This document shows, piece after piece, positions 3,139-57,298 of a stretch of 64,000 bases of DNA (the stretch's first letter is position 1; each line of letters opens with the position of its first letter). The position numbers were made by a program, and so were the translations under genes. The notes under the pieces are model-generated. The model was not told where the DNA came from and made no database searches. It saw nothing but the letters and a program-made list of their open reading frames with translations. Source of the stretch: a phage; the sequence record PZ179882.1. One strand, given 5' to 3'.

Positions 3139-3476
3139 TAGAACCTCATCTGAAATCCGTGCGATTTAACATTACCACCACCAATGTCAGAAATATTAAT
3201 TTCACGCGCAATTGAAGGGTCAATGTCAATTTCACGATTGAGTTTAATGATTGCTAGAGTATCACGTCCACTTACAGTACGGAACTCTAAAGGACATACT
3301 ACATTAACGTAGTTTTTAATCGATTCACTGGTAGGTTGCAAATGAGCAGGAAGGCCTTTAGGCGCCTTTGAGAAAACCACTTCACAGAAATTTTTGCGGG
3401 TATCAAAATAAGTAGTCATAAACATAGTATTTTCCTCAGTAAGGGGCCGAAGCCCCTGTTTTATTTTAAATATCAA
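3138..3476 (-). CDS. hypothetical protein, up to 112 aa (start may be internal Met at 3425)
   Basis: Track ORF; GAGGAAAA Shine-Dalgarno precedes internal ATG at 3425. Confidence 0.5.
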   Translation of the reverse strand: MIFKIKQGLRPLTEENTMFMTTYFDTRKNFCEVVFSKAPKGLPAHLQPTSESIKNYVNVVCPLEFRTVSGRDTLAIIKLNREIDIDPSIAREINISDIGGGNVKSHGFQMRF

Positions 3477-4312: not shown

Positions 4313-4340
4313 AAAAAAGGACTCCCGAAGGAGTCCTTAA
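4313..4340 (-). terminator. intrinsic terminator (GGACTCC-TTCG-GGAGTCC hairpin + T6 on minus strand)
   Basis: Perfect 7-bp GC-rich stem with UUCG loop followed by U-run, directly after stop of 4342..4518 ORF; identical copy at 57271..57298. Confidence 0.65.
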
Positions 4341-41100: not shown

Positions 41101-41658
41101 TTAGATGGAAAGATACCATCCGTTGTAGTTGCTTTTTCGCACTACCTTACGAAGGTCTTCTCTATCACCAATGAACTTCGGAGTGTACTGGATGACACCT
41201 GGATGAATTTCTTTAGTGTTGAATATAATTATACAGTCCGCGACTTGATGATTCAGAATGGGCCCTAGATTTATTCCAGAACCATATGGATACTCTCCGC
41301 TGCATCCTGTTGTTACCGAAATCCAACGTGAGTCAGTTTGATGGGTTTTGACTTCTACGCGAAGTCCGCAGTATCTTGGGTGCGCCAATACATCCCATGC
41401 ATATGTATACGGGTCATTAACATCCTCTTGGCCTTTGTTAACATACCCGCTCAGCCAATCTGCTACAAAAAACTCTGCATACACAGCGATACGGCATCTT
41501 TCGATGACTTCTGCTTTATCCTGATTAGGATTTTGTTTTAAAGAGTATCTTGCTGTATCAGCAATTTTGACCTTCATTTCACTAGTCAAATCATTGTTCG
41601 ATAGGGTAAATGTCGGAATCTGAAATAGTCTCTGTAAACCTGGATTCGTTTTCTGCAT
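41101..41658 (-). CDS. denB: endonuclease IV, 185 aa
   Basis: 185-aa ORF directly after rIIB/denB.1 as in T4. Confidence 0.8.
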   Translation of the reverse strand: MQKTNPGLQRLFQIPTFTLSNNDLTSEMKVKIADTARYSLKQNPNQDKAEVIERCRIAVYAEFFVADWLSGYVNKGQEDVNDPYTYAWDVLAHPRYCGLRVEVKTHQTDSRWISVTTGCSGEYPYGSGINLGPILNHQVADCIIIFNTKEIHPGVIQYTPKFIGDREDLRKVVRKSNYNGWYLSI

Positions 41659-41723
41659 TAAACTTTCCTTTTACGTCGGAATCACTGATATTCATATAAT
41701 AAATCATAGTTTCTCTTAAAACA

Positions 41724-41741
41724 AAAGGGCCGAAGCCCTTT
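41724..41741 (-). terminator. GC hairpin (AGGGC-TTCG-GCCCT) + U-run after 64-aa ORF
   Basis: Hairpin followed by TTTTGTTTT on minus strand; near-identical hairpin at 41954..41970. Confidence 0.5.
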
Positions 41742-41744
41742 ACT

Positions 41745-41939
41745 TTATTTGAATTGTGCAATTCTTTTTTCTAAACAATCTGCATAAGATTTCATTGAGA
41801 TGAACTGTGAAAGCAGTAATTCTTGCTCAACTGCATTAACCGTTGAAAACTTTTCACTTTCTAAAAATTTGCTCAATGCATTAATTTTGAGCATTAATTG
41901 ATCGTATTCTTCTTTTACTCGTGCTTGATAACCTAACAT
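41745..41939 (-). CDS. hypothetical protein, 64 aa (denB.1 slot)
   Basis: Track ORF; AAGGAAA SD. Confidence 0.55.
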   Translation of the reverse strand: MLGYQARVKEEYDQLMLKINALSKFLESEKFSTVNAVEQELLLSQFISMKSYADCLEKRIAQFK

Positions 41940-41967
41940 AATTTTCCTTAGTTAAGGGCCGAAGCCC

Positions 41968-42906
41968 TTATTTGAATTGTTCAGTAACGTCTTCAACTAC
42001 TTCGTATTGACAGGTACGCATTTTAGCATCGTTGTAATCAATCGGAATTGATACTACATCGCGAGGATGAACTTTAACTTTTACAACTCGGCTGGTTGAA
42101 CTGCCAAAGTGACGAATATAAGATTTAGAACACACATGCAGACCACGAGAACAAGTTTGTGTATCATCGTCATTCACACGAGTGCGTGGCATTTTAACTA
42201 CTTTACCAGGACTGTTATCAAAAGTATTTGAATGACAGTCAAAGTAATTACTGCGAACTACTTTCCAAGCATAGAAGTAACCATCTTCTGTAATTTCAAT
42301 ATCGTTTGCTACCAAGAAATCAAAGAGTCGAGATACCGCTTTTTGGCTCGGGTTTTCCAACAGATTTTCCAAGAACGGAAAATAAAATTCAAAGTTTTCG
42401 CCTTTTTCCATCGAATCGAGAATACGATCAACTAAACCAGACCGCAATTCAATGTTTTGATAGAACAAGCTTCCACCTTCAATTCGAACATCACCCGAAA
42501 TATATTTTTCAACAGCGCGACGAACGTTAATTTTTTGTGCCGCTTCTTCCAATTTATCTGCAACAAGCAGGTTAAGAATTTCCTGGAAGTTTGAATGAGT
42601 ATTAGGAGTTGCGTTATAAGTTACGCCGTCAACAGTAATTGAAATGAATTTTTTAGATGCATTCCAAATAATGTCAGATTTAGCAACTGGAGCAATAACT
42701 ACATCGCTATTAACTTTAACTGTAATATCACCGCTAATAGTAACTTTAGAGCGTTTAGCTTCTTCAGCATTTTTCAAAACACGACGGATTGTGTCAACCG
42801 ATACACCTTGCCAATCAGCCAATTCCTGTTGGGTGTAATTACCACTTGAATACAGCTTAACAATTTCAGCTTGTTCGTTTTTGGTCAGGCATTTAATATT
42901 GTACAT
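41968..42906 (-). CDS. rIIB: rIIB membrane-associated protein, 312 aa
   Basis: MYNIKCLTKNEQAEIVKLYSSGNYTQQELADWQG… matches T4 rIIB. Confidence 0.95.
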   Translation of the reverse strand: MYNIKCLTKNEQAEIVKLYSSGNYTQQELADWQGVSVDTIRRVLKNAEEAKRSKVTISGDITVKVNSDVVIAPVAKSDIIWNASKKFISITVDGVTYNATPNTHSNFQEILNLLVADKLEEAAQKINVRRAVEKYISGDVRIEGGSLFYQNIELRSGLVDRILDSMEKGENFEFYFPFLENLLENPSQKAVSRLFDFLVANDIEITEDGYFYAWKVVRSNYFDCHSNTFDNSPGKVVKMPRTRVNDDDTQTCSRGLHVCSKSYIRHFGSSTSRVVKVKVHPRDVVSIPIDYNDAKMRTCQYEVVEDVTEQFK

Positions 42907-42917
42907 AATTTTCCTTA

Positions 42918-45095
42918 TTAGGCCGCAAGGGCCTTCATAGTTTTAGCGATTTGAGAAACTTCATCATCACTTAAAGAGTTGCGATAACCGATGAAGTCGG
43001 AAACAATACGGAATTTCTTGGTAAACTCAGCAACCATTTTATCACTGTTTTTTGAAGCATTATTTGATAATACATCAAAAAGATTAGTTACTGTCCAGAT
43101 GTCATGACCGATGGTATCTTTTCCACCATTAAAATATACACCGCGCAATGAACTAACTATATTAGCGAGTCGTGTATATTCTTCAGAAACTTCATCTGTA
43201 CTGAAGTACTTCATCATAAAATCTAGTTCAGGATACTTGATAATTTTATCAATATATCGTTGAGCTGAACTTGAATAACCTACGTACTTATCATAATCTA
43301 CATCATCAAAAGCATCTACATATAAATCACGCAGAGTTTCAAAAATACATTGGCACTGACCGAGTTCTTTTACCTTTTTCTGCAAAAGCGGACGAATAAC
43401 ATAAAATTCATTAATGCCAATAATATTAGCCATACGAGTCAAAATATTCGTAGATGGATGACAAAGCGATGTAGTACCATCCATAGAGAAAATATCAGAA
43501 CGATGCATGTATGCTACATAACCAGTAATTTCATCTGCTTCTGACGTAAGTGTAAACAGTTCCTCTTTTTCCCAACGCCCGTCTTTAATTTCAAACTTAA
43601 ATGCAGTAGCAGTTTTAGGACGAGGAGCTGTACTTTTTACTGCCTTTGGAATATAACTTTTAACTAAAGCTTCAATTTCTGACAAATAATGAATGTTAAC
43701 TTCATCACTTTCAAACATTGCCATAATATCAGGGAGTAAATCAATTTGTGATTCTACTTCCGGATTAATAAACAGAAGGCGTTCGTTGTGATGAATATTC
43801 AAAGTGTTATTAAATTCATTATCATCTAACGCACGTGCTAATCCACGGACAATATTAACACGATTTTTAATATTATCAATAACGATATTAATTTTTGTTG
43901 TATTAATACCAAACAGACGATAACTTGATGCAACGGCTGAAGTTTCATGGCTTTGCTTAATGCGCTTCAGTCGAGGGTCAAGATTTACTTCATACACAAC
44001 TCCTGCATTGCATAACTTACTATCAGGTTCAAACATACTCTGCATCTTCTTATATGACAGATTTTTAGTCGTGAATTTGACTGAATTGCTAATCATATAA
44101 TCTCGAGCAGAATATCCCATCTTCATCAATTCACGGTATGTATGACGAGGAGATGTAGATTCTTTAAATCGTTTTACATCTTCATTAAATGCCTTCTCAC
44201 TGAGCTCTTTAACACGCTCAATAATATTTTTACGAGTACGATCATCTAGTGAAAGAGCCTCGCGAGATGGAGCAATATCAAGTGAACCCATTGGAAACTT
44301 AATGTAATTCACTTCATTGCGAATGCTTAGCCAGTTACGGTCTCTAATAACACCATCGATAGGATAAACAATACCGCCATAGATAGCATATAATCCACCA
44401 CGATCAGGCCAGTATCTTTCTGGATTTACACCGTAATAGTCATCAAAATCCGGAAAATAATCAATTTCGCGGTCAAGACCATTAACGATAGCCAAATCTT
44501 TGAATGGTCGCATGATATAAGAAACTTCATAAGCAAAGTTTCTAAAATCTTTTTCTTCAACTGGAACTACGATTTCAATGCCAGTTTTATCGTCTGGACC
44601 CATTTCTTTTACGAATGTAGGTTTAATCTGTGGACCATCACCATCCATGTAAGCTACATAACCACGAATTTCACCTTTATGATATGAAGTAATACTAAAT
44701 GTATCAGTATAACTAAACGGAGATTTAGAACCTAAACCAAATCCGCCAATGAAATCGTTGGATTCAGCCTTAGATGAACTGAAGTATGAATTATACAACC
44801 CAGGAGAATTATCATCACCCTGAATATCAAAATCACTCATACCTGGACCAAAATCTCGGCAAACAAATCGCGGATCTAAACGCCCAGGAACTTGTATGAT
44901 AAATTTTTCAGGATTTCCATTAAGAGCATGGGCATCAATCATGTTGGTAATCAATTCACGAACCACTGCGCGAATCTTGTTTGTATACAAATCAGATGAC
45001 AGAATTTTAAATACTTTAGGAGACGCTGTGATGCTAAATGCTTTTGATTTAGAACCATTGCCAAGAATTGTTTCTTTTTCAGTGGTGATAATCAT
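42918..45095 (-). CDS. rIIA: rIIA protein, 725 aa
   Basis: [40 protein letters not shown]… matches T4 rIIA. Confidence 0.95.
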
Positions 45096-57270: not shown

Positions 57271-57298
57271 AAAAAAGGACTCCCGAAGGAGTCCTTTA
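57271..57298 (-). terminator. intrinsic terminator after soc (GGACTCC-TTCG-GGAGTCC + T6)
   Basis: Identical 26-nt sequence to the terminator at 4313..4340. Confidence 0.65.

Follow-up and report, generated by a model that had tools for sequence, protein, structure and literature searches.

How two adjacent genes of one phage came to end on the same codons, and to be followed by the same hairpin, is the question raised by this locus. The genes are rIIB and a 64-aa ORF, and the window in which they lie, that is, the whole stretch of DNA that was analysed, is 64 kb long. A sequence-only reading had proposed that the coding 3′ end and the hairpin were copied together from one gene to the other, and that recombination at such hairpins builds small-gene cassettes.

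The two gene ends

DNA searches identified the window as a Tequatrovirus, the 2-kb region around the two genes being 93-98% identical to Tequatrovirus (T4-like) genomes. All genes of the region are on the minus strand. rIIA (42918-45095) is directly upstream of rIIB (41968..42906), which was taken from the ORF list and annotated relatives and encodes a 312-aa protein ending ...VVEDVTEQFK-stop; its identity is given by a full-length profile match (PF26926 / phrog_609 RIIB, E=7e-111), by synteny with rIIA and by 99% identity to annotated RIIB proteins. The next gene downstream of the 64-aa ORF is denB, encoding endonuclease IV (41101..41658, minus strand; phrog_1360, E=2e-97, and the annotation of relatives), the start of which is overlapped by a 38-codon in-frame remnant of a DUF7418 gene (41591..41707, minus strand). 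The full-length DUF7418 gene (99-109 aa, PF24193) is found in Sf24, RB14 and PaulHMueller as well as in outgroups, and its place is after the 64-aa ORF.

The ORF itself (41745..41939, minus strand; end ...EKRIAQFK-stop) matches Pfam family PF21825, Sequestin, over residues 4-61 of 64, with E=7e-20 and 71.1 bits against a curated cut-off of 24.8. Its length of 64 aa likewise agrees with the family, the proteins of which have about 60-80 aa. The ORF carries R7, E11, Q45 and R59, the positions mutated in SequestinB, and R59, Y52 and L56 are invariant across 131 aligned DenB.1/Sequestin homologues. Together with the annotation of relatives, these sequence comparisons identify it as denB.1 (T4 Y16O), an anti-Thoeris sponge of the Sequestin family. 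Sequestin and T4 Y16O, the latter the same 64-aa protein, have been characterized as sponges for 3′cADPR (bioRxiv 10.1101/2025.07.12.664507). The idea that the 64-aa ORF is an ORFan cassette was rejected, the gene being conserved, syntenic and functionally characterized.

Both genes end in Gln-Phe-Lys-stop encoded by CAATTCAAATAA, at 41968-41979 in rIIB and 41745-41756 in denB.1, and the rIIB and denB.1 ends are the only two occurrences of this 12-mer in the window. These ends form the upstream halves of what we call module A (rIIB) and module B (denB.1). The downstream halves are hairpins sharing AAGGGC-UUCG-GCCCUU on the minus strand: hairpin A, UAAGGGC-UUCG-GCCCUUA, at 41953..41970, and hairpin B, AAAGGGC-UUCG-GCCCUUU, at 41724..41741, each with a 7-bp stem and a UUCG cap. 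In the window, GGGCTTCGGCCC occurs three times against 0.05 expected, at 41956-41967, at 41727-41738 and, with unrelated flanks, at 3444-3455. A repeat search aligned the 16-nt hairpin with 100% identity and the block upstream of it at 15 of 16 positions, TG[A/C]ACAATTCAAATAA, the two modules together forming a 26-nt near-repeat with its copies 223-229 nt apart. The UUCG hairpins of the window make 28 pairs, and among these the A-B pair is an outlier for shared upstream sequence, with 13 nt against at most 8. The earlier description of the two ends was thus accurate, and the similarity reaches beyond the hairpin rather than being limited to it with unrelated flanks.

The likeness is nevertheless imperfect. 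Spacing between stop codon and hairpin is unequal: the UAA of rIIB lies inside the stem, of which it forms the first 3 nt, and the stop of denB.1 is 3 nt from its stem (spacer AGU, 41742..41744, minus strand) and 6 nt from the common GGGC core. In both T4 and the closest relative (98.4% identical), the rIIB codon is TTT, not TTC, so that the exact identity of the 12-mers in the window rests on one synonymous C/T site. T4 denB.1 has, in addition, AAG instead of AAA, its two gene ends reading CAATTTAAATAA at rIIB and CAATTCAAGTAA at denB.1 and differing at two synonymous sites.

At both sites GGGC-UUCG-GCCC is found with a C-G closing pair on the minus (RNA-sense) strand, and folding predicts the stable, isolated stem-loop expected of a C(UUCG)G hairpin. 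For hairpin A, the minimum-energy and centroid structures coincide and consist of the hairpin alone (-10.9 kcal/mol, z = -2.5). The centroid for hairpin B contains the hairpin and a small upstream helix (-11.7 kcal/mol), the minimum-energy fold having -13.1 kcal/mol (z = -2.1). The locus is also plastic: in Sf24, a perfect tandem duplication of ~290 bp runs from the 3′ end of denB.1 through hairpin B into the 5′ part of the following gene.

Origins and probable roles of the shared parts

The protein ends can largely be traced to the respective families. A C-terminus of the form ...DVTEQF(K) is common to the rIIB proteins of many genera at 50-75% identity, and this end is therefore native to rIIB. 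DenB.1 orthologues of other T4-like genera end in RIARF, RIQRF, RISYFGE, RISNFDF, RIQRFK, RIERF or RISYF, the Phe being invariant, and the C-terminal pattern of the Sequestin/DenB.1 family is ...RIxxF(K). F63 is present in 95 of the 131 aligned members, position 64 is most often Lys, and eight proteins end exactly in FK. These Sequestin C-termini come from an exhaustive HMMER search; a word-indexed protein search with DenB.1 retrieved close relatives only (18 matches). In the nearest outgroup found, the rIIB of which is 74% identical, DenB.1 ends RIQRFK-stop, coded 'ttc aaa TGA'. The ends of the family and of this outgroup indicate that Phe-Lys-stop is native to DenB.1 too. The complete QFK end occurs in none of 149 members of the wider Sequestin/DenB.1 family. 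On these alignments, the truly convergent part would be confined to Gln62, which is Arg in most relatives, and to the use of TAA as the stop.

Nor is the hairpin particular to these two genes. The closest complete genome (ECO07P5, 167.6 kb) contains 21 UUCG hairpins; a GGGC...GCCC core is present in nine, and the full AAGGGCTTCGGCCCTT 16-mer in five. The hairpin sequence is thus generic, being the commonest UUCG hairpin of the genome. The Gln-Phe-Lys-stop 12-mer behaves differently: it was looked for at other gene ends, as the sequence-only reading had suggested, and in ECO07P5 it is found at rIIB and denB.1 and at no other site. With two copies only in the closest complete genome, a genome-wide module of QFK-stop plus hairpin was rejected.

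The likeness continues into the translation signals. The initiation region of denB.1, ACUAAGGAAAAUUAUG (41937..41952, minus strand), includes most of a 15-mer, TAAGGAAAATTATGT (41936-41950, at the denB.1 start), that is identical to the rIIB initiation region at 42903-42917. The ribosome-binding stretch TAAGGAAAATTATG follows both hairpins in many relatives and also stands ahead of rIIB itself; it is similar to the RegA-type sites, rich in A/U, that have been quoted for rIIB and gene 44.

The position of hairpin A has a long history. A strong hairpin within 50 nt past the rIIB stop is present at 66 of 79 T4-like loci, as compared with 19 of 395 control windows taken inside rIIB, and a UUCG loop at 45 of 79 loci against none of the 395 controls, with 17 distinct UUCG stem sequences. 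The rIIB 3′ hairpin is therefore ancient, conserved in position and structure while its sequence has been turned over. A U-run past the rIIB hairpin is usual where no denB.1 follows: the 9 nt past the hairpin contain on average 3.9 T with denB.1 and 5.4 without it (p=0.012, uncorrected for phylogeny and thus to be read as a trend only), and several denB.1-containing lineages have kept the U-run after hairpin A.

The two hairpins of the window probably differ in function. Hairpin A is followed by the tail AACUAAGGAAAA, in which there is no U-run, terminator prediction flagging only the antisense (+) strand, and the start codon of denB.1 is 14 nt away. These features suggest that transcription reads through hairpin A, which most likely serves as an RNA-stability or insulator hairpin at the rIIB 3′ end. 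Hairpin B has the shape of an intrinsic terminator, with a stem ending in TTT, the tail TGTTTTAAGA and a U-run, UUUUGUUUU (41718..41726, minus strand), directly after the stem. It is predicted as a minus-strand terminator, and the annotations of phages fPS-65 and NBG2 also list a terminator at this site. Hairpin B and its U-run would accordingly form a Tequatrovirus-specific intrinsic terminator closing a rIIA-rIIB-denB.1 unit. An Rfam scan of 41400-42300 at permissive thresholds returned no family; hairpins A and B are not mentioned in a review of T4 post-transcriptional control, and the hairpin at the rIIB stop is not among the conserved terminators that Nolan et al. 2006 (PMC1524935) list in their text.

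Possible copying between the two ends

Indications of an actual exchange between the two modules come from a minority haplotype. In PaulHMueller and loci L103 and L104, module B reads GAACAATTTAAATAAGGGCTTCGGCCCTT and matches the module A of its own genome at all of 29 nt; the codon for Ala61 is replaced by one for Glu and TTC by TTT, and the spacer is missing. Among the loci compared, L093, L103 and L104 show the 29-nt identity, and L100 and L101 show near-identity. A query with this haplotype gave full-length matches of 96-100% in about 10 listed phage records, among them Sf23, Sa45lw, ESh29, KMB42, ECML-363, JoYop and SHFML-11/26; since 29-nt matches to module A confound the identity bands of such a short megablast query, only the listed full-length rows were used. 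The population is clearly mosaic, with the haplotype present on two denB.1 backgrounds at least, and TTT was never found together with a spacer in module B. Intermediates that combine GAA with TTC and a spacer (L099, L102) are compatible with change in either direction. Across Tequatroviruses, the distance from the denB.1 stop to the GGGC core ranges from 0 to 6 nt, the sequence being variable and consisting mostly of short A-rich slippage repeats. A metagenome pattern scan for module B yielded 16 loci, five of them Tequatroviruses and the remainder chance matches, which is too few for a test of concerted evolution.

The minority haplotype suggests that a short patch was copied from A to B at least once, the alternative of three independent changes converging on the A state being less likely. 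Small homology patches (<50 bp) suffice for T4 recombination according to Singer et al. 1982, as cited in PMC2839356. The proposal that coding end and hairpin were copied together thus appears sound for the minority haplotype; elsewhere, most of the likeness has independent explanations.

On balance, and with moderate confidence, we favour the following explanation. The locus would consist of two adjacent early-gene 3′ ends, those of rIIB and denB.1, each followed by the commonest C(UUCG)G hairpin of the genome, A being read through and B acting as terminator. Gln-Phe-Lys-stop would have been inherited mostly separately within each gene family, only the change from Arg to Gln at DenB.1 position 62 and the TAA stop being convergent. 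The resulting 26-nt near-repeat may occasionally have been homogenized by short-patch recombination, as in the minority haplotype in which B equals A over 29 nt. It would then be a by-product and an occasional recombination substrate, not the footprint of a cassette insertion. Against this explanation, hairpin B has the exact sequence of hairpin A and shares its lineage of origin, which a single founding copy would also fit; it does not account for the Arg-to-Gln coincidence; and an original copy, of which the 29-nt haplotype would be the relic, could take the place of a later conversion.

This leads to an alternative that seems rather unlikely to us, though it deserves careful weighing, namely a founding duplication at the base of the Tequatroviruses. 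The whole end module of rIIB (GAA CAA TTY AAA TAA and the hairpin), possibly together with the ribosome-binding region, would have been copied onto the end of denB.1 by ectopic recombination, or by tandem duplication followed by deletion; the common haplotype would be the diverged copy and the 29-nt haplotype a relic. Such an event would fit the restriction of hairpin B to the lineage in which B equals A, the nearest outgroups having no hairpin B, and the extent of the likeness, which spans codons, stop, hairpin and the TAAGGAAAA(A)TTATG initiation region. The spacers of B resemble slippage insertions into a module once without spacer, Sf24 carries its tandem duplication at the very same locus, and a pre-existing TTCAAAT microhomology, as in the denB.1 end 'ttc aaa tga' of L125, could have provided a crossover point. 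However, with Phe-Lys-stop native to DenB.1, 10 of the 12 coding nucleotides need no copying, and both the hairpin and the consensus of the initiation region are generic in the genome. Moreover, the spacer-less haplotype is rare (about 10 of the listed rows), and in most genomes A and B differ at synonymous sites. Either reading, founding duplication or the separate ancestry with later homogenization that we prefer, would imply at least one transfer of codons, stop and hairpin from the rIIB end to the denB.1 end.

It is also conceivable that no exchange ever took place. Native C-termini, selection for an optimal GGGC-UUCG hairpin and a consensus ribosome-binding site would then have produced the repeat, and the 29-nt haplotype would stem from independent point mutation and slippage. 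Each component does have an independent explanation: GAA is found without the other A-like states in L099 and L102, TTT differs from TTC by a synonymous transition, and slippage easily removes a 5-nt tandem unit. In an AT-rich stretch of 2 kb, an exact 12-mer repeat is, by our own estimate, about what chance would give, and other repeats of 13-15 nt are present. We nevertheless regard pure convergence as improbable, given that in five loci three separate differences (the Glu codon, TTT and zero spacing) all point towards module A of the same genome. The lack of any combination of TTT with a spacer and the outlying position of the A-B pair among the hairpin pairs of the window also argue against it, and the over-representation of the GGGC core (9/21) suggests spread or strong constraint.

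The distribution of denB.1 bears on the wider claim that recombination at hairpins builds small-gene cassettes. rIIB, a hairpin and denB.1 follow one another in this order in Tequatro-, Dhaka-, Gapriver-, Kanagawa-, Marfa- and Winklervirus, as well as in Pectobacterium phage PM2 and several further lineages. No hairpin follows denB.1 in Dhaka-, Gapriver-, Kanagawa- and Marfavirus or at loci L125, L126 and L128, and in the lineages without hairpin B the DUF7418 gene downstream begins right at the end of denB.1 or overlaps it. The DenB.1 orthologues, at 46-58% identity, belong to a single syntenic group, always adjoining rIIB; a scan of IMG/VR with DenB.1 contributed five loci only. Mosigvirus, locus L127 and others have no denB.1, and their order is rIIB, hairpin, U-run and then the DUF7418 gene or denB. 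This absence at deeper levels is compatible with loss or gain by recombination in short intergenic modules. At the level of Tequatrovirus, the region DNA search and the DenB.1 protein search gave similar numbers of records (about 500 and 497, respectively). A synthetic query for an A/B deletion junction matched 498 phage records, and among the 30 best-ranked of these there was no single-piece junction, all having the normal two-piece arrangement with a span of about 320 nt. No promoter-like site was found on the minus strand in module A or B, the gap from hairpin to ATG being 14 nt (A) and 17 nt (B). With no promoter in either, the two modules fall outside the PeSL definition of Arbiol et al. 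2010 and Comeau et al. 2014.

With denB.1 adjoining rIIB in at least eight lineages, most of them without hairpin B, the cassette claim finds no support. Its specific form, in which denB.1 would be a PeSL-type unit, excisable and insertable between two repeated modules that served as its sites of entry, as for the ORFans of RB49 and phi1, is very improbable: PeSL-mediated shuffling and mini-circles are documented in T4-type phages, with GGGC/GCCC motifs at T4 deletion endpoints (PMC2839356, PMC4122927), and denB.1 is present or absent between rIIB and the DUF7418 gene at deeper levels with the rIIB-side hairpin always kept, but promoters are lacking, denB.1 is not polymorphic among the Tequatrovirus records examined, most denB.1-bearing lineages possess hairpin A only, and the orthologues never leave the side of rIIB.

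Returning to the preferred explanation, a broader idea may be put forward tentatively. In T4-like genomes, short-patch gene conversion may have its hot spots at UUCG-hairpin modules, with tracts reaching a few codons into the upstream gene, such that the spread or homogenization of terminator hairpins would occasionally rewrite protein C-termini. If so, conversion at the present locus would have changed Ala61 to Glu in the Sequestin sponge of the haplotype with 29-nt identity, and the nine near-identical GGGC hairpins of the genome would represent one family kept up by copying.

Relation to known phage systems

C(UUCG)G tetraloop hairpins were reportedly first described in T4 mRNAs in an original paper by Tuerk et al. 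in 1988. The hairpins studied here have the same UUCG loop, C-G closing pair and short GC stem, lie between cistrons on the transcribed strand and show no structural difference from those of T4. The eight UUCG hairpins of the window without exception occupy the minus (transcribed) strand, and in the closest genome 19 of 21 are likewise on the transcribed strand. The year of first description is also given as 1988 in a summary (PMC4371310). What is added here is the existence of two adjacent UUCG copies with common upstream codons, and the conservation of position of the post-rIIB copy across T4-like phages. A UUCG-type hairpin directly past the rIIB stop is among the most position-conserved non-coding features of these phages.

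As regards intrinsic terminators, hairpin B is similar in having a GC stem followed by UUUUGUUUU. Hairpin A differs in having no U-run and a ribosome-binding site at once after the stem, and would probably terminate inefficiently. The likeness to Sequestin, in contrast, concerns the gene and not the repeat: denB.1 exceeds the PF21825 cut-off and has the R7/E11/Q45/R59 set, with Gln62 being unusual within the family. Since denB.1 is this recently characterized anti-Thoeris sponge, the hairpins define the transcriptional context of an anti-defence gene.

Repeated stem-loop modules have been known as recombination sites of T4-type phages since 2010 (Arbiol et al. 2010, PMC2839356; Comeau et al. 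2014, PMC4122927). Modules A and B resemble PeSLs in being repeated intergenic stem-loops in a plastic early region and possible patches of short homology, and the GGGC...GCCC motif is noted in the PeSL papers. They differ from them in having no sigma-70-like promoter, in flanking a conserved gene instead of a variable ORFan, and in that no indel at the A/B repeats was seen in close relatives among the 30 best-ranked of the 498 junction matches. The locus shows that three ordinary ingredients, namely native protein ends, a favoured tetraloop hairpin and a consensus ribosome-binding site, can be enough to produce a conspicuous local repeat in a phage genome, and that the very active recombination system of the phage can then use such near-repeats as substrates. 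Overall, the rIIB–denB.1 junction is T4 intergenic architecture of the ordinary kind, with a minor signature of recombination.

Hairpins at the ends of rIIB and denB.1

Hairpins following the rIIB stop codon were surveyed in 80 rIIB loci (L013–L092). In 66 of the 79 T4-like loci the stop codon is directly followed by a GC-rich hairpin, mostly UUCG-capped, and the UUCG stems found at this position are of 17 different kinds. Nolan et al. (2006) name conserved terminator positions in their text, and the post-rIIB position is not one of them. Three loci (L047, L049 and L050) are arranged differently: the start of denB.1, the Sequestin-family gene, overlaps the rIIB stop with no intervening hairpin, and a UUCG hairpin, AAAGCCC-UUCG-GGGCUUU, is located 3′ of denB.1, as if the end-of-unit hairpin had shifted one gene downstream in this lineage.

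The hairpin that follows denB.1 (hairpin B) lacks one C in L100 and L101 (GGGCTTCGGCC-TTTT), which weakens its stem. Both loci carry the minority form of the denB.1 end that resembles the rIIB end and has no spacer between stop and stem.

The DUF7418 gene and a tandem duplication

A full-length DUF7418 (PF24193) gene of 99–109 aa lies 3′ of denB.1 in Sf24, RB14, PaulHMueller and the outgroups. Comparison with this gene shows that the minus-strand ORF that comes after hairpin B, at 41591–41707 (MIYYMNISDSDVKGKFNAENESRFTETISDSDIYPIEQ), is a DUF7418 gene shortened by an in-frame internal deletion, with the N- and C-terminal parts retained; the remnant overlaps the denB start. A similar remnant is also present in T4.

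In Shigella phage Sf24 (L002, approximately 1092–1920) a perfect tandem duplication of approximately 290 bp spans hairpin B, with the 3′ part of denB.1 on one side and the 5′ part of the DUF7418 gene on the other, and produced the two paralogous ORFs gp121 and gp122. The duplication junction does not coincide with a hairpin.

Hairpin blocks shared elsewhere

Two minus-strand hairpins of the window, at 57274–57297 and 4317–4338 and thus 53 kb apart, share an identical 22 nt (AAGGACTCC-UUCG-GGAGTCCTT). Judged by sequence, they are PeSL-like (promoter-early stem-loop), because both have a T-run and a GTTTAC-containing, early-promoter-like stretch on their downstream side. In the closest genome, ECO07P5, a 22-nt block is common to the downstream side of two hairpins with different stems.

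Translation starts and possible RegA sites

The last rIIA codons (...KALAA-stop) form a 5-bp GC hairpin, AGGCC-CUUGC-GGCCU (42920–42934, minus strand), immediately 5′ of the rIIB start region. An identical 15-mer, TAAGGAAAATTATGT, occurs on the minus strand at the translation starts of denB.1 (41936–41950) and rIIB (42903–42917). This 15-mer is similar to the A/U-rich sequence AAAAUUAUGUAC, which is quoted as the RegA target in T4 rIIB. In relatives, the DUF7418 remnant has a start region, AAAUUAUGAUU, that matches the RegA site given for gene 44 in PMC3014915. In view of these likenesses, denB.1 may be regulated by RegA.
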